64,000 nt of DNA from Bacilli bacterium (GCA_017484065.1 JAFUTX010000017.1:430-64429); one strand, 5' to 3'; shown: positions 31,238 to 56,062, numbered from the stretch's first letter. Program-made: numbers and translations. The notes: generated from the sequence alone by a model not told the origin.

Positions 31238-34200
31238 TTAATCTTGTTCAAACGATAATAATGTTCTAATATCTTCTTCGCTTAAAGTATCTAACATTGT
31301 ACTTTCATCCGCATCAATAATTTTATCACTAAGCATTTTCTTTTTAGCTTGTAGATCAGCTATTTTTTCTTCTATAGTTCCCTTACTAATAATTTTAATA
31401 ACCTCTACAGTATTCTTTTGTCCAATACGATGAGTTCGATCGGTAGCTTGGTTTTCTGCTTGAGGATTCCACCACAAATCTAAGTGAATTACCACATCAG
31501 CACTTGTTAAGTTAAGACCGGTACCTCCACTTTTTAACATTATTAAGAAAACGTTAGTATCATCTTTATTAAATTGCTCAACAAGTTGTTGCCTCTTACT
31601 AGCCGCTACATCTCCCGCTATCGTATAGCTTGTAATCCCTTCTTTATCAAATTCAGCCTTTACTATGTTTAATGCAGTTTTAAAACTAGTAAATAATAGA
31701 ATTTTATGACCATTGTCAATTACTTCATGAACCACTTTGATTAAATTATCAATCTTACTGCTTCTACCATTATAGTTTTCATAAACTATTTTAGGGTCTA
31801 TACATATTTGTCTTAATCTAGTGAGTAATTGTAGTATCATAAATTTAGCTTTCAAAAATCCCGATTCTTTAATTAAAGCATTCATTTTTTCATTAGTCTC
31901 TTTTACAACTTTTGTATATATCTTCTTTTGATCTTCGTTTAGTTCAACATATATATTATTCTCGATTTTAGGAGGTAAATCTTTTAATACATCGCTTTTC
32001 TTTCTTCTTAAAATAAATGGATGTACTTGTTTATTTAAATCATCTATTGTTTTTAAACTTTCTTCATCAAAATCTTTAATAACATATTTGCTGTTAAATT
32101 TTGACTTATTATTTAAGATACCTGGCATAATAAAGTCAAATATACTCCATAATTCAATAACTGAGTTTTCAATTGGTGTACCTGTTAAAGCTAGTTTAGT
32201 TAAAGCTGGTATTTCTTTTACGGCTTTAGTAATTCCTGCAGTAGGATTTTTAATATTTTGAGCTTCATCAATAATACACACTCTAAATTGTTTTTCTTTA
32301 TATAAATCAATATCTATTCTAGCTAAACCATAAGTAGTAACATAAACTGTATGTTTAAATTCATTTAATATTTCCGTTCTTTTTTCTTTTTCACCATTAA
32401 CTAATACTACATTAATTTCTGGAGCAAACTTTTGAAATTCATTTTGCCAGTTATATAAAAGTGATGTAGGTACCACTATTAAGAATTTGTTAAATTTATC
32501 TTCTTGTAATAATTTACGAATATATATAATAGTTTGTAAACTTTTTCCAAGTCCCATTTCATCAGCAAGTATACCCCCTAAATCACATTTAGTTATATTA
32601 TATAACCATTTAACACCAGTCACTTGATAATCTCTAAGTAGTTTTAATTCGTCTTTAGTAAATTCTACCTCACTATCTTGATATTTTTTAAAATTATCTA
32701 TAAAGTTATCAAATAAGTTATTAGTTTTTATAATACTATATTTTTCTTTCTTTAAACTATCTAAGTAAATAGCACGATATTTAGGTATTACACCACTATC
32801 TCCATCAATATCCAAATCTTCCATTAGATTACTTAATTGGTTTAGAGAATCATCTTGCAAATCAACTATGTTACCATTTTTTAAACGATAGTATTTTTTC
32901 TTAAGTCTTAAAGATTCTATTACTTTATCTAATTCAGATTTATCAATATCATTTAATTCAAAGTTATAACTTAGTATATTATCTGTACCAATACTAAATG
33001 TTGTGCTACCAACAGCTTTTTTAACTAACTTAGTATTCTTTATTTTTTTAGTAGTAAATATTTGATATTTATTACTTAGTTCTTTTAATCCTTTTTCTAA
33101 AAAGGAAACCATTCTTTCTAAATCTTCAATGACAAATTCATGAGTGGTATCAATAAAGCCTTGTATTAATAAATCGTTAACTACACTATTTTCAAAATCG
33201 TAATCTCTTATTAATTGAGTATTATTATTTATGTGATAATCTACTTCTTCTTCATTATACTTAAATTTTAAATTAGCAGTAATAAATTCATCAGTCATAT
33301 CAAAATATATTTGTGGTTCTGCTTTAATGTCTAAATTTAAATCTTCTACTCCAGCACCTAAAGCTAGATTATCTTTAAATATAGGTAATAAATTCTCTGT
33401 AAAAGAATTAAAATCCTTTTCATCAAAAACTAATTTATCTAATCCAAGTTCATTCATACTATGTAAAAATTCTCTGTTTTTCTTATTTAAATGGTATAAA
33501 GATCCTTGATAATAAATATATTCTAAATCATCAAATAATTCATAGTAATCGCCGCTTTCAAGAGCTAGACGATAATTATTATCTTCTTTTTCTAAAACAC
33601 TTTTAAAAGGAAACTTAGTTTTAATATGTTCAATAAATCCTAAGTTGTCTATATAAAAAGGCGTATCTTTTAACATATTAAGTAACTTTTTTAAATCCTT
33701 TTCATTTATATATAAAGTATTATAATGATAATTGCAATTTGAATCAATAAAATCTATAATTTTAGAGTTAATATCATTAAAGAACATTTCATCACTTTTA
33801 TATACAAAGCTTTTGCCAAATGCTACTTCACTCACTCCATCTTTAAACGCACTCATAAAAGCATTATATTTAGAAGTTAATGAATATAATTTATCTGTTC
33901 CTATTTTTATTTTTAAATAATAGTTTTTACGATAATAATAGTAGTAATGATCATCTATGCCAACAGTTAATTCTAAAAAGCACTCCTTCTTAATCTTTTT
34001 ACTATTGTCATTATTGAATATTTTAAACAATTCTTTTGTTTTATTAATGATATCTATTTCACTTTTAAAATTAAATAGTTTATTACTATAAGTTATTAGG
34101 CATGCTGCTACATGTTTACATGTTTTTTCTTTTTGATGGTCAATACAAGTACATTCAGTGTATTTAACATCATTTTTTTGTGTAACAATTCTTACTATGT

Positions 34201-34348
34201 AAGGTTTTCTATCTTCTTTAACAATGAAATTATAATTATTATCATAAGTATTCATTAATATGATATCATCTTCATCAATTAATAAACCATTATTATAATC
34301 TTCTTCTGATACTACATTTTTAATTATATTATCTATTTCTTGTAGCAT
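31238..34348 (-). CDS. SNF2-family helicase with an N-terminal SWIM zinc finger
   Basis: SWIM motif CTCIDHQKEKTCKHVAAC. Helicase motifs ILADEMGLGKS, DEAQNIKN, LTGTPIEN and QATDRTHRIGQ. Confidence 0.85.
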   Translation of the reverse strand: MLQEIDNIIKNVVSEEDYNNGLLIDEDDIILMNTYDNNYNFIVKEDRKPYIVRIVTQKNDVKYTECTCIDHQKEKTCKHVAACLITYSNKLFNFKSEIDIINKTKELFKIFNNDNSKKIKKECFLELTVGIDDHYYYYYRKNYYLKIKIGTDKLYSLTSKYNAFMSAFKDGVSEVAFGKSFVYKSDEMFFNDINSKIIDFIDSNCNYHYNTLYINEKDLKKLLNMLKDTPFYIDNLGFIEHIKTKFPFKSVLEKEDNNYRLALESGDYYELFDDLEYIYYQGSLYHLNKKNREFLHSMNELGLDKLVFDEKDFNSFTENLLPIFKDNLALGAGVEDLNLDIKAEPQIYFDMTDEFITANLKFKYNEEEVDYHINNNTQLIRDYDFENSVVNDLLIQGFIDTTHEFVIEDLERMVSFLEKGLKELSNKYQIFTTKKIKNTKLVKKAVGSTTFSIGTDNILSYNFELNDIDKSELDKVIESLRLKKKYYRLKNGNIVDLQDDSLNQLSNLMEDLDIDGDSGVIPKYRAIYLDSLKKEKYSIIKTNNLFDNFIDNFKKYQDSEVEFTKDELKLLRDYQVTGVKWLYNITKCDLGGILADEMGLGKSLQTIIYIRKLLQEDKFNKFLIVVPTSLLYNWQNEFQKFAPEINVVLVNGEKEKRTEILNEFKHTVYVTTYGLARIDIDLYKEKQFRVCIIDEAQNIKNPTAGITKAVKEIPALTKLALTGTPIENSVIELWSIFDFIMPGILNNKSKFNSKYVIKDFDEESLKTIDDLNKQVHPFILRRKKSDVLKDLPPKIENNIYVELNEDQKKIYTKVVKETNEKMNALIKESGFLKAKFMILQLLTRLRQICIDPKIVYENYNGRSSKIDNLIKVVHEVIDNGHKILLFTSFKTALNIVKAEFDKEGITSYTIAGDVAASKRQQLVEQFNKDDTNVFLIMLKSGGTGLNLTSADVVIHLDLWWNPQAENQATDRTHRIGQKNTVEVIKIISKGTIEEKIADLQAKKKMLSDKIIDADESTMLDTLSEEDIRTLLSFEQD

Positions 34349-34429
34349 ATAAACACCTCCAAGTAGCCATCTATTATTATAGCAAAAATATGTTCGTATA
34401 GCAAATTAAATTTCAAAAAAAAGAAACTT

Positions 34430-35260
34430 CTATTTTCTAGTAAGTTTCTTTACTTTACTGTTACTATTTATTTCTTCTTTAAAACTATTATTTAAGAAAT
34501 AATCTATTCCATTATCTTCTAAACCTTGTTCATATGATAATGGTTCATGATATCCCCTAGCAGAAAATAATACATTTTCACTTAATAATGTTTTATGTCT
34601 TTCATTAACATACCATTTAATCTTTTCTATATTAATCCATGCATAGCTATCAACCGGATAAAAATTACCATCACTTAATATTACACCATCTTTACCATAG
34701 ATTAAATCTTTATTAATATGGCATCTAATATACTTTTTACCATCCAGTTCATAAACGATTTTATAACCTGGAATAAAATCATCATAATTTAAGCTTACAT
34801 TTTGACTAATTACATCCTTAGATATTGTTAACTCTTCATTTTGAAATAAACTCTCTAATATATTTTGTTGTTTAGAATTTACAACATTCATCGGATATTG
34901 TCCATAATTAATATATTTTATGTCATTTTCAATTATTAATTCGTTAGTTAATTCTTCTAAAGTATCATAATGAATTATTGGTCTAACACCTGCAAAACGA
35001 TAATCATGAGTATGAGCAAGTCCACTACCATCTATTATAACCACATGGTTATGCTCATCATTTTCTTCAAATTTAGTTATATAGTAACCTGTTCTATTAG
35101 CCAAATTTGAACGGATTATATCGGTATAATAATCTCCTACAAAAATACCATTAATAATAGCATAATCAGTTACATTAGCTGGCAAACCAATTTTATTTAT
35201 TATATCTAATTTGTTTTTGCCAAATAAATCTTCATTAGTTGGTACAGTAATATAAATCAT
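34430..35260 (-). CDS. Hypothetical cytoplasmic protein
   Basis: ORF only, with no signal peptide. It contains YRFAGVRPII, reminiscent of the ..GLRPVL ending of the 1..1527 product. This is a weak motif-level resemblance only. Confidence 0.45.
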   Translation of the reverse strand: MIYITVPTNEDLFGKNKLDIINKIGLPANVTDYAIINGIFVGDYYTDIIRSNLANRTGYYITKFEENDEHNHVVIIDGSGLAHTHDYRFAGVRPIIHYDTLEELTNELIIENDIKYINYGQYPMNVVNSKQQNILESLFQNEELTISKDVISQNVSLNYDDFIPGYKIVYELDGKKYIRCHINKDLIYGKDGVILSDGNFYPVDSYAWINIEKIKWYVNERHKTLLSENVLFSARGYHEPLSYEQGLEDNGIDYFLNNSFKEEINSNSKVKKLTRK

Positions 35261-35310
35261 AGTCCATCACCTTGGTGGTTATGATAGCATAAGTATCCTT
35301 TTAAAGCAAT

Positions 35311-35345
35311 AAAAATAAAAAATCAATTCCATTTCTAGAATTGAT
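35311..35345 (-). terminator. Intrinsic terminator after tRNA-Thr
   Basis: The minus strand reads ATCAATTC-N8-GAATTGAT followed by TTTTTATTTTT. Confidence 0.7.
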
Positions 35346-35387
35346 ATTTATTAGTAAATTGAACCAAAGTTCAACCAGATTCTTTAA

Positions 35388-35463
35388 TGGTGCTGACTGA
35401 GAGATTTGAACTCCCGACCTACGCGTTACGAGGGCGTTGCACTACCAACTGTGCTAAGTCAGC
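35388..35463 (-). tRNA. tRNA-Thr (anticodon CGU), CCA encoded
   Basis: Manual fold: acceptor GCTGACT/AGTCAGC; D stem GCAC/GTGC; anticodon loop CTCGTAA; T arm GGGAG-TTCAAAT-CTCTC; 3' ACCA. Length is 76 nt. There is one C-C mismatch at positions 31-39. Confidence 0.85.
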
Positions 35464-35510
35464 TTTTTGTACCTTGAGTACATAATAAATATATCAAATA
35501 ATTATTCTTT

Positions 35511-37046
35511 TTACAAATACTTTTCTTCAACTAAATTATTTTTTATTTTTTCATTTATTACTAAATACTTAGTTGTAAGTAACATAGCTGCTACAGAACT
35601 AGCATTTTTTAGTGCTGTAATTATTACTTCAACAGGGTCAATTATATCAATATTGTCTTCCAAAGAATTATTCTTTAAATTGATTATTTTTTGATAATTA
35701 CTTTTTCTTATTAATTCCTCCATAGTTTTATTATCTACGCCACTATTTATCATTATCTTATTAAATGGTTCGCTTAGTACCTCTTTTAAAATGGCATCTC
35801 CAGCATTATTTACATTTAATTCATTGCTTATTTTTAACAAAGTAATACCTTCTCCTGTAACAACTCCCATGCTTGCTATATGTATAGCATTTAAAGCATC
35901 CTCTAAGCGCATTATTTTTTCTCTTATTTCTACCTTAGTTGATCCTCCTACAAATAAAGTTGCTATTCCTGTATTTAATTTAGCTAATCTATTTGCTATA
36001 AATTCTTTATCATAATCACTATTACAATTATCAAACTCATTCTTTAGTTCTTTTATATATTTTTTATCTATATCATTATATATTACTAATTCATCTTTAT
36101 TAATTGTTATGTATTTACATAAGCCTAAGTCTGCACAATCCACACTTTCATAATCAATATTCTTAATATTTGCTGTAGTAATTGTTGAAATATCTTTAAT
36201 AATACTTTCTTTTCTTGTAGCATATTCTGGTAAATTAAATAAGTAGATATTCTTATCATTGTGTAAATTATATACTAATAATTCTTGAGTTAATACATTA
36301 TCATAATCTTCTGCTAATATTACTATTTTTTTATTATTCACTATGCCTTCATTAATAATATCACTTATTTGTTCTAAACTATTTAAATAACCTTTGATAA
36401 GTAAAATATAAACATCTTCTAATCTTATTTCTAAATCATTAGAAAAATATAGATTAGATACATTATTAAGTTCAATACTGTAACCATTTTTGATTTCATA
36501 ATATGTTTTATCATTATTACTTTCTTTTAAGATAATTGCATATTTGCTTTTAACTATTTCAAATAATTGAACTAATATTTTAGCTAACTCTAAATCGTTA
36601 CAAGAAGTACAAGCCACATTAATTAAATCTTCTTTATTAGGTTTTCTTTTTTCATTATTAATCATTTCTACAACTTCTTTAGTAGCAGATATTAACTCTT
36701 TTTTTAAAACTATGGCATCCTTACCATTATTAATTAAATCTAAACCATGCTTAAATATACTTTGTAATAGCACTAAAGTTGTTGTAGTCCCATCTCCGAC
36801 TAATTGATTAGTTTTATTAGCAGCTTCTTTCAAAATATCTAAAATAGTATTAATTTTAATATCATCACTTTCAATTGAATTAGCAATAGTTACCCCATCA
36901 TTTGTAATATATGGACTTACCTCATCATTATTAATTATTACATTATTACCACTTGGACCTAATGTAGATGATACTGTATCACATAGTAAATTAACTGCAT
37001 CTAACATTACTTTTTTTAATTCTTCGTTATTTATTACCTTCTTCAT
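35511..37046 (-). CDS. Divergent GroEL/Cpn60-family chaperonin paralog (no groES, no GGM tail)
   Basis: Motifs TLGPSGNNVII, ITNDGVTIANSIE and LVGDGTTTT match GroEL N-terminal and equatorial motifs. VTGEG replaces the canonical VPGGG. The protein ends NNLVEEKYL. The likely start is ATG at 37046 after GGAGG, overlapping the upstream gene. Confidence 0.75.
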   Translation of the reverse strand: MKKVINNEELKKVMLDAVNLLCDTVSSTLGPSGNNVIINNDEVSPYITNDGVTIANSIESDDIKINTILDILKEAANKTNQLVGDGTTTTLVLLQSIFKHGLDLINNGKDAIVLKKELISATKEVVEMINNEKRKPNKEDLINVACTSCNDLELAKILVQLFEIVKSKYAIILKESNNDKTYYEIKNGYSIELNNVSNLYFSNDLEIRLEDVYILLIKGYLNSLEQISDIINEGIVNNKKIVILAEDYDNVLTQELLVYNLHNDKNIYLFNLPEYATRKESIIKDISTITTANIKNIDYESVDCADLGLCKYITINKDELVIYNDIDKKYIKELKNEFDNCNSDYDKEFIANRLAKLNTGIATLFVGGSTKVEIREKIMRLEDALNAIHIASMGVVTGEGITLLKISNELNVNNAGDAILKEVLSEPFNKIMINSGVDNKTMEELIRKSNYQKIINLKNNSLEDNIDIIDPVEVIITALKNASSVAAMLLTTKYLVINEKIKNNLVEEKYL

Positions 37047-37779
37047 TACTATCCTCCATCTCAATTATATAATTCCAATATTTTTTAGGCATAAAGTTCA
37101 TTTGACACTTTAAGTTTTTTCTTTCTTTTATAGCAACAGTTTTAAAAAATGTTTTCCATAAATCTTCAACTATGTCTTCTTCACTATTTTTATCTAAATT
37201 AAGTTTTATTATTTCATCTTCTGTTAAATACATTATCTTTTTTAAATCATATAAAGCATAATTATTTCTTTTAACATCTTTAATAATCCAATAATCTTTA
37301 TTAAGTCTTTTTTTAAAATGATTAGCAAGTATTTCTATAACATTATTAGTAGATTCGTATTCTGCATAATAAAAATTATTTTTCATTTGTTTAAATCTTA
37401 AAAAGCCTTTTAATTTATGGGCTTCATTACCTACATTATGAGCAATCTTCAGTATTTTATTTACGCAATTTAAATCACGATGATTAAATATTTTACTTTT
37501 ATATTTTAAAGCATTTTTAATAAAGTAATAGATAATTAATTCTTTATTGTCTACACTGGATAGATAACAATAATAAACAATATGAATGACATTATAAGAT
37601 AAATAATCAAATAGATTAATCTTCTTTTCTAAATTAAGCTGTACGGGTTCATCTAATAAATTTATTTTATATTCTTTATCACTTTTAATATCACTAGGAG
37701 TTATTTTTAAATAGATTAAATCTCCTACTAAAGATATTAATGAGTTAAAACTACCATTATATAAATAAGTTTTATTCAT
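37027..37779 (-). CDS. DUF4130-type 'probable DNA metabolism protein', partner of the radical SAM gene
   Basis: The N-terminus is YLYNGSFNSLISLVGDL, typical of this family. It overlaps both neighbours. Confidence 0.65.
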   Translation of the reverse strand: MNKTYLYNGSFNSLISLVGDLIYLKITPSDIKSDKEYKINLLDEPVQLNLEKKINLFDYLSYNVIHIVYYCYLSSVDNKELIIYYFIKNALKYKSKIFNHRDLNCVNKILKIAHNVGNEAHKLKGFLRFKQMKNNFYYAEYESTNNVIEILANHFKKRLNKDYWIIKDVKRNNYALYDLKKIMYLTEDEIIKLNLDKNSEEDIVEDLWKTFFKTVAIKERKNLKCQMNFMPKKYWNYIIEMEDSNEEGNK

Positions 37780-38986
37780 TAAATAAGCACAACTGTCTAC
37801 CCGTACTATTAATACTTGCTTTATCTTCTAAAACTAAATTCTTTTCAATAAAGTTTTTATTAAATATTGAAGATGCAGCAAAATATTTACCATTACACGT
37901 AATAAAATACTTAGCTCTTTTTAATGATATTCCCATTTTCTTTAAGTCGTTAAACTCTATTTTGAATACTCGTCTAGCTAATATAATTTTTTTGGCTGAC
38001 TTAGGACCAATACCAGGTATTTTTAATAAATCATAATAACTAGACTTATTAATTTCTTTAGGAAACTCATTTAAGTGTCTTAAAGCCCAATCAGCTTTAG
38101 GATCAATTAAAACATTAAAGTTAGGATTATTCTTATCTAATAAATTATCTACTTGGTAATTATAAAATCTTAGTAACCAGTCCGCCTGATAAAGGCGATG
38201 TTCACGAGTTAAAGGTGGAAGTGATAAAGAAGGTAATAGCTTGTCTTTATTAACCGGAATATATGCAGAATAAAATACTCTTTTTAAATCATATCTGTTA
38301 TATAAAGATTCACTTTTGCTTAATATATCTAAATCGGTTTCATGAGTTGCTCCTATTATCATTTGCGTACTTTGACCAGCCGGTGCAAAATTCCTACTCT
38401 TATTTTCTTTAACACTTTTCATAATTTTACTAATGTTATCATTATTTTTATCTGGCGCTAGTAATTTCAAAGAAGAATCAGTTGGTAATTCAATATTAGC
38501 ACTAATTCTATCTGCTAGTCTTCCTAATTTCTTTAGTAAATACTCACTTGCTCCTGGTATAGCTTTTACATGGATATAGCCGTTAAAATGATATTTACTA
38601 CGAAGTAAATACAACGTTTCAATAAGACGTTCCATAGTGTAGTCGGCACTTTTAATAATACCAGAACTTAAAAATAAACCTTCAATATAGTTTCTTTTAT
38701 AAAAATTCATAGTAATCTCGCATATTTCTTCCGGAGTAAATATAGCTCTTTTAACATTATTACTTTTACGATTAATACAGTATTTACAGTCAAATATACA
38801 AGAATTAGTCATAAGTATTTTAAGTAATGATATACACCTACCATCACTACTAAACGAATGACAGATTCCACTATAAGCTACACTACCTACTCCATCTTTG
38901 TTTGAACGTGTACTGCCACTAGATGAACAAGAGGCATCATATTTGGCACTATCACTAAGAATAATTAGTTTTTCTTTTAATGTCAT
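37772..38986 (-). CDS. Putative DNA modification/repair radical SAM protein with a C-terminal helix-hairpin-helix
   Basis: CxxxCxxC motif (CIFDCKYC) and HhH motif LLKIPGIGPKSAKKI. The likely start is ATG at 38986, after AGGTGG. Confidence 0.75.
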   Translation of the reverse strand: MTLKEKLIILSDSAKYDASCSSSGSTRSNKDGVGSVAYSGICHSFSSDGRCISLLKILMTNSCIFDCKYCINRKSNNVKRAIFTPEEICEITMNFYKRNYIEGLFLSSGIIKSADYTMERLIETLYLLRSKYHFNGYIHVKAIPGASEYLLKKLGRLADRISANIELPTDSSLKLLAPDKNNDNISKIMKSVKENKSRNFAPAGQSTQMIIGATHETDLDILSKSESLYNRYDLKRVFYSAYIPVNKDKLLPSLSLPPLTREHRLYQADWLLRFYNYQVDNLLDKNNPNFNVLIDPKADWALRHLNEFPKEINKSSYYDLLKIPGIGPKSAKKIILARRVFKIEFNDLKKMGISLKRAKYFITCNGKYFAASSIFNKNFIEKNLVLEDKASINSTGRQLCLFNE

Positions 38987-39014
38987 ATTTACCACCTATG
39001 TATAGTATACAATA

Positions 39015-39036
39015 GTTCGTGTTATTTGTCACGAAC
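39015..39036. promoter_or_regulatory. Perfect 7-bp inverted repeat GTTCGTG-N8-CACGAAC upstream of the radical SAM operon; candidate operator or a weak terminator
   Basis: Read directly. It lies between the DUF421 stop (39056) and the radical SAM start. No convincing U-run follows it on the minus strand. Confidence 0.35.
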
Positions 39037-39055
39037 AAATGATTGGTAATTTATG

Positions 39056-51305: not shown

Positions 51306-53411
51306 TTACCACTTTATAATAAATTCACCATTCTCTACATCAATTACTATTTTAGAATTATATTTAATCTTGTCTTCTATAATATAATTAGCAAGCAATG
51401 TTTCTATATTTCGAGTTATATATCTTTTAATTGGTCTAGCACCGTAATTAGAGTCATATGCTTCTTCTAAGATAAAATCTTTGCAACCTTTAGTAAGTTT
51501 AATACTAATTTGTAAATCACTTAAACGAGATTCAGTTTCATGAATTATCTTATCAATAATATCATATACAACTGATTTATCTAATTTATTAAAGACAATA
51601 ACCTCATCAATACGATTAATAAACTCTGGTCTAAAATGGTGTTTTAATTCATTTAATACTAATTCAGTAGAATTATTTTCATTATCTAAAATATATTCAC
51701 TACCTAAATTACTTGTCATAATAATAATAGTATTTTTAAAATCAACTGTTCTACCTTGTGAATCAGTTATTCGACCATCATCTAATATTTGTAATAAAAT
51801 ATTAAATACATCAGGATGAGCTTTCTCTATTTCATCAAACAAAACAATACTATAAGGATTACGTCTTACTGCTTCAGTAAGTTGTCCACCTTCATCATAT
51901 CCTACATATCCTGGAGGAGCTCCGACTAAACGAGAGACATTAAACGCTTCCATATATTCACTACAATCAATTCTTACCATATGTCTTTCATCATCAAATA
52001 ATTCATAAGCTAAACTTTTAGCTATTTCTGTTTTACCTACACCAGTTGGTCCTAAGAATATAAATGAACCAATAGGACGATTAGGATCTTTAATACCACT
52101 ACGAGCTCTAATTATTGCTTCACTTACTAACTTAATTGCATTATCTTGCCCTTTAACACGTTTCTTTAAGTTATTTTCTAGGTTAAGTAGTTTTTCTTTT
52201 TCGCCACTTACTAGTTTTTTAATTGGAATATTAGTCCATTTAGCAATAATACCAGCTATAGATTCTTCATCTACTACATCACTTAATATTTTAGAATCAA
52301 CTTTATTATTTAATTCATTTAATTCTTTTTCTAATTTTGGAATAGTACCATGACGTAACACTGCTGCTTTTTCTAAATCATAGTTGTTTTCAGCTTTATC
52401 TAAATCAAAGCGTGCCTTTTCAATTTCTTCTTTCTTATTATTGATTTTTTCATTAAGATTTTTCTCATCTTCCCAAGTATCGCGCATAGCTTTTTCTTTT
52501 TGTTTTAAATCTTCTATTTCACTTTCAATCTTTTCACGACGTTTAATACTTAATTCATCTTTTTCTTTTTTTAGTGCTTGGCGTTCTATTTCTAAACGCA
52601 TAATATCACGAGTTAAAGTATCAAGTTCAACTGGAACACTATCAAGTTGCATCTTAATGGTAGCACAAGCTTCATCAACTAAATCTATAGCTTTATCTGG
52701 TAAGTATCGATCAGTAATGTATCTATCAGCTAGGGTTGCTGCTGCTACTAAGGCATTATCTTTAATATTAACTTTATGGAATACCTCAAATCTTTGTTTT
52801 AATCCACGTAAAATAGTTATTGTATCAATAACACTTGGTTCACTAACCTTAACTTTTTGCAACCTTCGCTCTAACGCACCATCTTTTTCAATGAATTTTC
52901 GATATTCATTTAATGTAGTAGCACCAATCAAACGGATTTCACCACGTGCAAGCATCGGTTTTAACATATTACCAACATCCATAGTACCTTCTGCTCCGCT
53001 ACCGACAATCATATGGATTTCATCAATAAACATAATAATGTCACCATTACTATTTTCTATTTCTTTTAAGACTGCTTTTAATCTTTCCTCAAATTCACCA
53101 CGATATTTAGCACCTGCTACTAACGCACCTAAATCTAATTCCCAGACAGTTTTGTTTTTAAGGCTATTAGGAACATCACCTTTAATGATACGCCACGCAA
53201 GTCCTTCAACTATAGCTGTTTTACCTACACAAGGTTCACCAATTAATACCGGATTATTCTTTGTCTTACGTGATAATATTCTAATTACATTACGGATTTC
53301 TTCATCTCTACCAATAACTGGATCAACTTTGTTATCTGTAACATTTTTTGTAATATCACGTCCATATTTTTCTAAAACATTTTCTTCCTCTTGATTATTT
53401 GGATACATCAT
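51306..53411 (-). CDS. clpB: ClpB disaggregase lacking the N-terminal domain
   Basis: Two AAA+ modules are present ([14 protein letters not shown] and [18 protein letters not shown]) with a long coiled-coil middle domain. The protein starts near the position of NBD1. Cys replaces the usual Gly in GEPGVGKT. Confidence 0.85.
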
Positions 53412-53432: not shown

Positions 53433-53474
53433 ATTATAACTCTATAATTAGCAATTGTCAATACCGAGTGCTAA
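53433..53474 (-). promoter_or_regulatory. clpB promoter overlapping a CIRCE-like HrcA operator
   Basis: The minus strand reads TTAGCACTC-GGTATTGAC-AATTGCTAA (53474..53448). The left arm matches CIRCE TTAGCACTC-N9-GAGTGCTAA at 9/9 and the right arm at 7/9. TTGACA (53461..53456), a 17-nt spacer and TATAAT (53438..53433) are embedded in it. Confidence 0.65.
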
Positions 53475-54969: not shown

Positions 54970-55959
54970 CTAATTTAACTCTTTCATATCAATATTCATT
55001 ATTTCTAAATAATCTTTTTCTGCTTTTGTTAAATGGTTTTTCATATATTTATCATATTCTTCGTGTGCTTTGATTAATGCTTGTTCATGTGAAATACTAC
55101 CTTTAGACTTTAAAATATCATTGTGAGTCATAGTTAAGAAACTATCTAATTCCTTTATCCAATCTTCCATAGTCATCACCTTTCGTTTTAAGGCATTAAT
55201 TTCAGCAAGGTCAAGGTAAGCTGATACTAATCTATTTAATATTTCTAATTCCTCTAATGATAAATAATTTTTAGCGATTTCAGTCTCTGACCTAGTAGGA
55301 GTATCTCCCTTAAAATTTGTTAAACCTATATTATTCTTATTGCAATCTACTCTATTATATACAATTTCAGCAGCAGTTTTTTTTGAAACAGCGTAATGCA
55401 TTTTGTTTTGAACAGTTTTAAAGAAATCAATAGTAATTTTTTCTTTCGGGTTATAATCAATACTAGTAGCATAAATATCCAACACTTTTCTCCAAAAAAC
55501 TTTTTCACTAGATCGTATATCTCTTATTTTTTCTAGTAACTCATCAAAATAAGGATCATAACCATTATTTTTAAACCTTTCAACATTTAAATTATATCCT
55601 TTTACCAAATATTCTTTCAATATTTTATTTGCCCATATTCTAAATTGTGTACCACGATTAGATTTAACTCTAAACCCAATCGCTATAATCATATCAAGGT
55701 TGTAATAATTGACATTATAATTTTTACCGTCATTCGCAGTTGTTCGGAAATTCCGAACAACTGAATTTTCAATTAATTCCCCTTCTTCAAAGATATTCTT
55801 AATATGTTCATTAATTGTTGATTTTGCTTTATTAAATAAATTACCTATTTGAGATTGAGTTAACCAGATATTTTCATCTTGTAATAAAACCTCGACTTTT
55901 ACATTACTATTATCTTCATAAATCAAAAAATTGTTATCTTCTTTAATATTATTTTTCAT
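54970..55959 (-). CDS. RhuM-family protein
   Basis: WLTQSQIGNLFNKAKSTINEHIKNIFEEGEL and GFRVKSNRGTQFRIWA are typical of RhuM. The likely start is ATG at 55959, after AAAGGAG. Confidence 0.75.
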   Translation of the reverse strand: MKNNIKEDNNFLIYEDNSNVKVEVLLQDENIWLTQSQIGNLFNKAKSTINEHIKNIFEEGELIENSVVRNFRTTANDGKNYNVNYYNLDMIIAIGFRVKSNRGTQFRIWANKILKEYLVKGYNLNVERFKNNGYDPYFDELLEKIRDIRSSEKVFWRKVLDIYATSIDYNPKEKITIDFFKTVQNKMHYAVSKKTAAEIVYNRVDCNKNNIGLTNFKGDTPTRSETEIAKNYLSLEELEILNRLVSAYLDLAEINALKRKVMTMEDWIKELDSFLTMTHNDILKSKGSISHEQALIKAHEEYDKYMKNHLTKAEKDYLEIMNIDMKELN

Positions 55960-56062
55960 ATCGTTGCTCCTTTGTATCTCTTGTATATACAAATAATATC
56001 ATAAAGAACAAATGTACGTCAACAATAATTTATTATTATAAGCAAAAATATTCATATAATAA

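Follow-up and report, generated by a model that had tools for sequence, protein, structure and literature searches.

Two kinds of described system lie closest to the locus reported here. The first is a radical SAM/DUF4130 module (the COG4277-COG1573 pair), which is SOS-controlled in Bacteroidetes and other phyla; DNA-damage regulation of the pair has also been reported in Acinetobacter, and in a published screen the radical SAM and DUF4130 proteins were predicted by AlphaFold 3 to form a heterodimer acting on nucleic acid. The second is the bacterial chaperonin: in bacteria with several chaperonins, at least one paralogue with a Gly-Met-rich C-terminal tail (the GGM tail) is always retained (PMC11978752), and in E. 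coli the level of Pol V depends on GroE through UmuC, Pol IV being likewise among the GroE-dependent SOS polymerases (PMC6590174). Here we describe a locus in which the two are joined, in a 64,000-nt stretch of DNA from a Bacilli bacterium (GCA_017484065.1 JAFUTX010000017.1:430-64429; the whole stretch is hereafter called the window, and all coordinates are window positions). Its third gene encodes a diverged, GroES-less GroEL (hereafter GroEL*), which, as judged from sequence, looks like a specialised chaperonin, but one that is the sole copy, has no GroES, is apparently under SOS control and lies in an operon with a DNA-repair radical SAM pair. The SOS control of the radical SAM module is already known from other phyla; the attached chaperonin is undescribed in the literature found. 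A full-text literature search gave no paper tying a chaperonin to TIGR03916, TIGR03915 or DUF4130, in agreement with an earlier note on this DNA, which knew of no described example.

Compared with canonical GroEL/GroES (E. coli; TIGR02348, PF00118/PF00166), GroEL* has the same three-domain fold and the same ATP-site residues, and it appears to descend from the lineage's own groESL; unlike the canonical system, it scores under the family cutoff, has no GroES, GGM tail or controlling inverted repeat of chaperone expression (CIRCE), has a LexA-type operator, and comes third in a DNA-repair operon. Its sequence also changes more quickly inside a single family than that of canonical GroEL between phyla. 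The operon resembles the SOS radical SAM/DUF4130(-uracil-DNA glycosylase (UDG)) cassette (TIGR03916-TIGR03915-TIGR03914; COG4277-COG1573) in that its first two genes are clear members and its control is of the SOS type, but it has no UDG, the third place being taken by a GroEL-derived ATPase. Mycobacterial Cpn60.1 and chlamydial GroEL2/GroEL3 are likewise GroELs that have diverged, with changes to the tail, weaker oligomerisation or dependence on GroES, and a more restricted role; however, these coexist with a GGM-tailed housekeeping GroEL, whereas GroEL* is the sole copy, and none of them sits in a radical SAM DNA-repair operon. Rhizobial symbiosis-linked groESL copies are further specialised extra chaperonins. 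The E. coli GroE-dependent SOS polymerases (UmuC/Pol V; Pol IV) are similar in that a chaperonin is tied to DNA-damage-induced repair or mutagenesis proteins, but E. coli GroE is a general heat-shock GroESL encoded elsewhere, whereas the link of GroEL* is hard-wired in one operon, with no other apparent role. Phage-encoded GroEL-like proteins (Pseudomonas phage EL gp146) are GroES-independent with a restricted client set, a likeness by description only; they are viral, independently acquired and unlinked to radical SAM genes.

The earlier note had read the locus as three overlapping minus-strand genes, for a radical SAM protein with a helix-hairpin-helix (HhH) motif, a DUF4130 protein and a Cpn60-family protein, with the GGAGG Shine-Dalgarno sequence of the last inside the upstream gene; all of these are present. 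The first gene (37772..38986, minus strand) encodes a TIGR03916 radical SAM protein (hereafter rSAM; 619 bits, cutoff 343.5), for which the translation and the domain scan gave both the CX3CX2C cluster motif (CIFDCKYC) and the HhH motif. Its start was assigned to the ATG at 38986, behind an AGGTGG Shine-Dalgarno sequence, the start of the longer option for the open reading frame (ORF) (GTG, 38995) lying within that AGGTGG. The second gene (37027..37779, minus strand), which shares 8 nt with the rSAM gene, encodes the TIGR03915 partner (198 bits, cutoff 112), a protein of 250 amino acids with DUF4130 as its sole domain. No family-4 UDG (TIGR03914/COG1573) was found as a domain of this protein or as a gene in the operon, the rest of the genome not having been searched. 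GroEL* (35511..37046, minus strand; 511 amino acids; PF00118, 128 bits over residues 23-498) is encoded by the third gene, which shares 20 nt with the DUF4130 gene and has its GGAGG 8 nt before the ATG. This arrangement is far beyond chance, the same order and tight junctions being present in all of the more than 45 related genomes examined.

The distribution of the trio was determined by whole-genome searches of a family sample of 301 genomes (214 genera), since a scan of named genomes gave just one clade member and two canonical GroELs and was too insensitive for the fast-evolving GroEL*. A GroEL-type match was present in 52 of the 301 genomes, with none in the other 249, and TIGR03916 was present in 47 (G124 has one more match, under the cutoff, to another radical SAM paralog). 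Where both were present (47 genomes), rSAM and GroEL are on one contig and in the same orientation in 46, separated by 740-1090 bp, the size of DUF4130; G050 and G113 depart from this only in appearance, the contig breaking off at the locus with DUF4130 still next to GroEL. Neither the pair without GroEL nor a clade GroEL without the pair was found in any of the 301 genomes. The neighbourhood survey proposed in the earlier note gave a strongly conserved linkage: the order rSAM, DUF4130, GroEL is constant in 43 fetched loci and the window, with median junction overlaps of 8 nt (rSAM/DUF4130) and 4 nt (DUF4130/GroEL), whereas the flanks are scrambled (distinct immediate neighbours in 35 of 39 cases upstream and 35 of 40 downstream). 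Radical_SAM-DUF4130-Cpn60_TCP1 was also the order on another two contigs, from metagenomes, whose genes had been called and labelled with Pfam domains independently; the surroundings there were different again. About 40 genera retain a full-length GroEL* ORF (identity 37-54%); for rSAM, homologs among the matches listed have 78-83% identity. Outside the family, with 400 genomes sampled at class level and 400 at phylum level, TIGR03916 was found only in G599 (2.1 Mb, from another family), where the full trio is present and the linked copy is the only GroEL. As for sites without the trio, a probe in genus g19 gave no match, and in genus g214 a block of about 7.7 kb (the trio, Ku, ligase and three other genes) is missing beside one conserved flank, with no clean deletion.

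Genes of non-homologous end joining (NHEJ) are repeatedly found next to the trio, in more than one genus and orientation: LigD (with primase-polymerase and phosphoesterase parts) in five loci (L020, L021, L063, L075 and L078), and Ku with an ATP-dependent ligase in G541 (L088:6937-8542). These recurring neighbours hint at a small DNA-repair neighbourhood. A recurrent flanking cluster (c0), considered as a mobility gene, turned out to be LigD, and no transposase or integrase signal was seen.

The genome assembly comprises 1.19 Mb in 32 contigs (25.8% GC, 93% complete), and the sequencing runs holding the locus are gut metagenomes, several from ruminants. The genome-wide search gave no second GroEL, and no canonical groESL, for which the earlier note had suggested looking, was found elsewhere. 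GroEL* is accordingly the only chaperonin gene in the genome and, by phylogeny, apparently the lineage's own groEL, so that the word paralog, used in that note, does not apply. The same note had named two circumstances that would speak against its reading, of which one, that this is the only groEL in the genome, is true, and the other, that the adjacency is not conserved in relatives, is clearly false. The absence of a groES partner, which it had also remarked, was borne out: GroES was found in the genome neither with Pfam Cpn10 nor with a family-specific profile, made from divergent GroES sequences of the family itself and run over all six frames. Cpn10 was likewise absent in 25 of 25 family genomes tested. 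As a separate observation, G302 (L086 3740-5113) has a 457-amino-acid protein with 23-24% identity to the window GroEL*, set among unrelated genes and with no rSAM, DUF4130 or GroES nearby, which is possibly a separate, very distant Cpn60-like gene.

Three basal linked loci (G266, G090 and G066), and only these among the linked loci, have GroES: their 260-bp gap between DUF4130 and GroEL encodes an 87-amino-acid GroES (Pfam Cpn10, 48-52 bits). Two other family members (G041 and G308) have ordinary groES-groEL pairs that are unlinked to any radical SAM gene. In the maximum likelihood GroEL tree, the order was the canonical GroELs of the class, then the unlinked copies of the family, then the linked clade; all linked GroELs formed one clade (support 99 in the Shimodaira-Hasegawa-like approximate likelihood ratio test), in which G599 and the GroES-retaining members together branched off at the base, as sister group of the GroES-less members with their long branches. 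Of 39 splits, 17 are common to the GroEL tree and a tree of concatenated rSAM+DUF4130 (mean 0.14 and maximum 2 after shuffling), and the patristic distances of the two datasets are correlated (r=0.91), GroEL evolving about 1.7 times faster. The simplest reading of these trees would be that groESL of the lineage itself was captured behind the pair on a single occasion and has been inherited with it since, GroES being lost at least twice; the data also indicate that the evolution of GroEL probably sped up after the loss of GroES.

GroEL* is far from the existing GroEL models, all six of those tried giving scores under their cutoffs, for example 295 bits with TIGR02348 (cutoff 582) and 317 bits with NF009487 (cutoff 352); with the chlamydial GroEL2/GroEL3 models NF038370 and NF038369, the scores were 74.5 and 64.2 bits (cutoffs 600). 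Its alignment with solved GroELs nevertheless spans the full length (239 bits, residues 2-497). The structure predicted with AlphaFold2 (predicted local distance difference test (pLDDT) 90.2, predicted template modelling score (pTM) 0.80) has the complete three-domain GroEL fold, including the beta strands forming the ring interface, and in Foldseek it matched GroEL and Hsp60 subunits with template modelling (TM) scores of 0.85-0.88; it is nearest to open or GroES-bound subunits, a likeness from which no functional state is read. Alignment and residue audit agreed with the motifs listed in the earlier note: TLGP and GDGTTT are kept, VTGEG stands in place of V(P/A)GGG, and the GGM tail is missing, as it is from all linked GroEL copies. 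Among 39 GroES-less members, the ATP-site residues T30, G32, P33, D52, G53, D87-T90, D398, G414, G416 and D495 are invariant or nearly so. Changes are found at the residues for GroES contact (L234 to S/A/E/G/K, V264 to S/N); elsewhere in the apical groove, Y199 is replaced by an aliphatic residue or Asn, and Y203, F204, L237 and V263 remain hydrophobic. The R197-E386 allosteric salt bridge and F44 are changed or lost in GroES-less members, and the inter-ring contacts are altered (V464 to E/K/T/D, R452 and A109 variable, the 428-434 loop deleted). Two GroES-retaining linked members keep most of the canonical residues.

The ratio of nonsynonymous to synonymous substitution rates (dN/dS) for GroEL* was 0.09, 0.14 and 0.18 in three unsaturated close pairs; among its partners in close pairs, DUF4130 was similar (0.10-0.25) and rSAM was under stronger constraint (0.03-0.04). 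Within the family, the identity of GroEL* is 49% in the equatorial, 40% in the intermediate and 31% in the apical domain, compared with 57%, 64% and 54%, respectively, for eight canonical GroELs across phyla; between the clade and canonical GroELs, apical identity is 24%, and inside one genus the identity of GroEL* is 46%. Taken at the sequence level, GroEL* thus appears to have undergone selective remodelling rather than decay. In place of the C-terminal GGM repeats of canonical GroEL, an acidic-aromatic motif [DEN][YFW]x[DEN][LIMFWY] (DYNEL, EYTEL) was noticed in 17 of the 39 GroES-less members (e.g. L066, L061, L068); with this count, and with none in 55 of the window's subclade, it was rejected as a clade-wide feature.

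CIRCE (0-2 mismatches) was found upstream of every canonical groESL of the class and of the family's unlinked copies examined, and upstream of no linked GroEL locus, the window and the groES-bearing loci included. Three CIRCE sites lie elsewhere in the genome. One of them (TTAGCAATT-N9-GAGTGCTAA, 53448-53474, 2 mismatches) is 37 nt upstream of the gene for a 701-amino-acid Clp/Hsp100 ATPase (51306..53411), so that an HrcA-type regulon persists in the genome though GroEL has left it; the earlier note had likewise reported no CIRCE at the operon and a CIRCE-like site at clpB. In place of CIRCE, two LexA-type (Cheo-like) boxes lie over the putative rSAM promoter on the minus strand: CAATCATTTGTTCG (39032..39045), which abuts and overlaps the -35 element GTGACA (39032-39027), and CGAACTATTGTATA (39006..39019), which overlaps the -10 element TATACT (39009-39004). 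The layout with two boxes is also present in the nearest relatives (G115, G223 and G022), and 38 of the 41 other loci have, ahead of rSAM, a palindromic CRAAC-N4-GTTYG box in the form of the Gram-positive LexA (Cheo) box or an AT-shifted variant. From the rSAM-promoter boxes of the 38 other genomes alone, a weight matrix was derived and scanned over the whole 1.19 Mb genome; the recA promoter ranked 1st, the lexA promoter, which has the string CATTTGTTCGTG in common with the first box, ranked 2nd, and the box at 39032-39045 ranked 3rd. The genome encodes a LexA that is 53% identical to B. subtilis LexA. The two boxes over the promoter, which the earlier note does not mention, would therefore place the operon in the SOS regulon and not in the heat-shock regulon. 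A terminator-like match at 39036-39015 was rejected, being the inverted repeat of two LexA-type half-sites over the promoter.

The same scan gave further boxes. CGAACATATTTTTG (34383-34396, rank 8 genome-wide) lies upstream of the gene for a 1036-amino-acid bacterial SNF2 helicase (31238-34348, minus strand) and overlaps its best promoter-like site (TTGCTA-17-TATAAT with TG), so that the helicase could be the window's second SOS gene. AGAACAAATGTAC (56005-56017, rank 30), which is LexA-like but weaker, lies 13 nt before a RhuM-family gene (54970-55992), and boxes resembling it are found before two ORF6N/KilA-N-like genes in other parts of the genome; these may be genes of mobile elements with a link to SOS. 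CAAACAAATGTATG occurs as three identical boxes (ranks 4-6) at C9:15965, C19:2428 (window 1999) and C15:81993; either a repeated element present in several copies or additional SOS promoters may account for them. On the 3' side of the operon, tRNA-Thr(CGU) (35388..35463, minus strand) lies 47 nt past the GroEL* stop, and it is followed by a probable intrinsic terminator (35310..35345, minus strand; an AT-rich hairpin and then a T-run, by RNA folding), which was missed by a consensus scanner because its stem has few G-C pairs. The earlier note had the operon end in this tRNA and terminator. Both are present, but the tRNA was rejected as an operon member and is an incidental neighbour: it is directly 3' of the operon in just two loci out of 44, and a promoter-like site of its own, TTGTAA-17-TATATT with TG at 35516-35488 (promoter scan), could serve it separately. 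Between the tRNA and an ORF at 34430-35260 lies a perfect GAAC-N4-GTTC palindrome (TTGAACCAAAGTTCAA, 35361-35372), one of only two genome-wide, which forms a hairpin after tRNA-Thr and is about 100 nt upstream of the ORF's product, a 276-amino-acid protein without a family match; it may be a terminator stem, a LexA site or chance.

The linkage, the co-inheritance, the selection, the residue pattern, the operator motif and the absence of GroES are computed results, and the first four of them strongly support the suggestion of the earlier note that a GroEL was repurposed and dedicated to the module. Transcription as one unit, LexA binding, the oligomeric state, ATPase activity and the client relationship we infer. 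We consider it somewhat more probable than the alternatives taken together that GroEL* would be a private chaperonin of the radical SAM/DUF4130 enzyme, induced in the SOS response, cycling ATP and needing no GroES. In its history, the lineage's own groEL, with groES, would have been captured once directly behind the pair, and control would have switched at that point from HrcA/CIRCE heat shock to a LexA-type operator; later, GroES would have been lost, at least twice, and the GGM tail, L234/V264, the R197-E386 bridge and the inter-ring contacts shed, the ATP-binding and hydrolysis site and the three-domain fold being retained throughout. DNA damage would lead to cleavage of LexA and, with translation of the genes coupled, to joint production of the three proteins; GroEL*, acting without GroES, probably still as a ring and possibly as a single ring, would serve the Fe-S radical SAM/DUF4130 heterodimer by folding it, assembling it or maintaining its activity, and the heterodimer would then repair or modify damaged nucleic acid. 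The SOS-type operon, the translational coupling and co-inheritance, the GroEL-less majority of the family and the fact that the GroEL is never found without the pair together suggest that its selective value is tied to rSAM/DUF4130 and not to general proteostasis. A more specific form of this idea is that the general need for GroEL was lost in genome reduction and that a GroES-less, probably single-ring, SOS-induced partner or third subunit of one radical SAM enzyme was left, a single-client chaperonin; this we put forward tentatively, giving it somewhat less than an even chance.

Three other explanations were weighed. GroEL* might be an exapted ATP-driven ring and a true third subunit, which loads, shields or remodels the enzyme-nucleic acid complex or unfolds proteins stuck on damaged DNA. 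This would suit the tight translational coupling (4-nt overlaps), which is typical of complex subunits, the apical domain as the most remodelled part (31% within the clade, 24% to canonical GroELs), a groove for substrate and GroES that is partly lost beside an invariant ATPase site, and the NHEJ genes beside the trio (LigD in five loci, Ku and ligase in one); but no DNA-binding feature was found in GroEL* by domain and family profile scans, the groove positions Y203, F204, L237 and V263 are still hydrophobic, and the GroES kept in the operon by basal members points to an ordinary folding-cage origin, so that we regard it as unlikely. Rather more doubtful, in our view, is that GroEL* serves the whole cell as a general chaperonin merely put under SOS control, with its place in the operon a regulatory convenience. 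It is the only chaperonin in the genome, its ATPase site and overall fold are intact, and several SOS proteins are supported by GroE in E. coli; however, a general chaperonin should sometimes outlive the pair, which it does in none of the 301 family genomes, 249 of which have no GroEL at all, GroES, the GGM tail and the allosteric and inter-ring contacts are all lost, and the rate of evolution is far above that of housekeeping GroEL (46% identity inside one genus). That the gene is a decaying groEL remnant, passively adjacent to the pair in one subclade and heading for loss, is very improbable: the family does shed GroEL (249 of 301 are without it), divergence is fast and a few copies are interrupted, but dN/dS of 0.09-0.18 largely refutes it, and it is further opposed by the full-length ORF in about 40 genera (37-54% identity), the invariant ATP site, the overlapping junctions that are constant though the flanks are scrambled, and the confident AlphaFold2 model.

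Several points weigh against the preferred reading of GroEL* as a private chaperonin. The computed data fit a chaperone of the enzyme and a working subunit of the enzyme alike. GroEL* is interrupted, with rSAM and DUF4130 intact, in two or three genomes: in G091 (L059 3730-5006), it is split into two ORFs without query residues 217-349, about the third that makes up the apical domain; in G066 (L050 5265-6877), it is split near residue 70; and in G243 (L079), it has in-frame TAA codons. Possibly the pair can last in the absence of GroEL*, for a short time at least; alternatively, the assemblies may be in error. Since three adjacent genes can be lost together by a single deletion, the pattern of presence and absence is not independent proof of coupling; it was also read without a species tree and so gives no count of independent losses. 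G415, an ATP-contact glycine, is variable across the 39 GroES-less members, its replacement by Glu giving the VTGEG of the window. As for regulation, the box instances were chosen under the guidance of the Cheo consensus, the promoter of G599 has no obvious Cheo box, and no RNA runs holding the locus were found among the sequencing runs searched. Finally, with the genome 93% complete, a missed GroES is not fully excludable in this one genome.

The textbook rules for GroEL, namely that it has a GroES partner and that one Gly-Met-tailed copy is always kept, are broken here by a natural lineage, in which the sole chaperonin is under apparent DNA-damage control instead of heat-shock control and is inherited only with one enzyme pair. 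The lineage is a natural experiment on the minimal client set of a chaperonin and on a GroEL working without a lid. A stepwise series is preserved, from unlinked groESL with CIRCE, through linked groES-groEL, to linked GroES-less GroEL, and it would allow the capture and specialisation of a housekeeping machine to be followed. Should the enzyme depend on a chaperonin of its own, co-expression of the two may make the widespread, uncharacterised TIGR03916/TIGR03915 module tractable in vitro. If the single-client reading is true, an ATP-driven chaperonin ring would have been recruited in this lineage to the repair of nucleic-acid damage.

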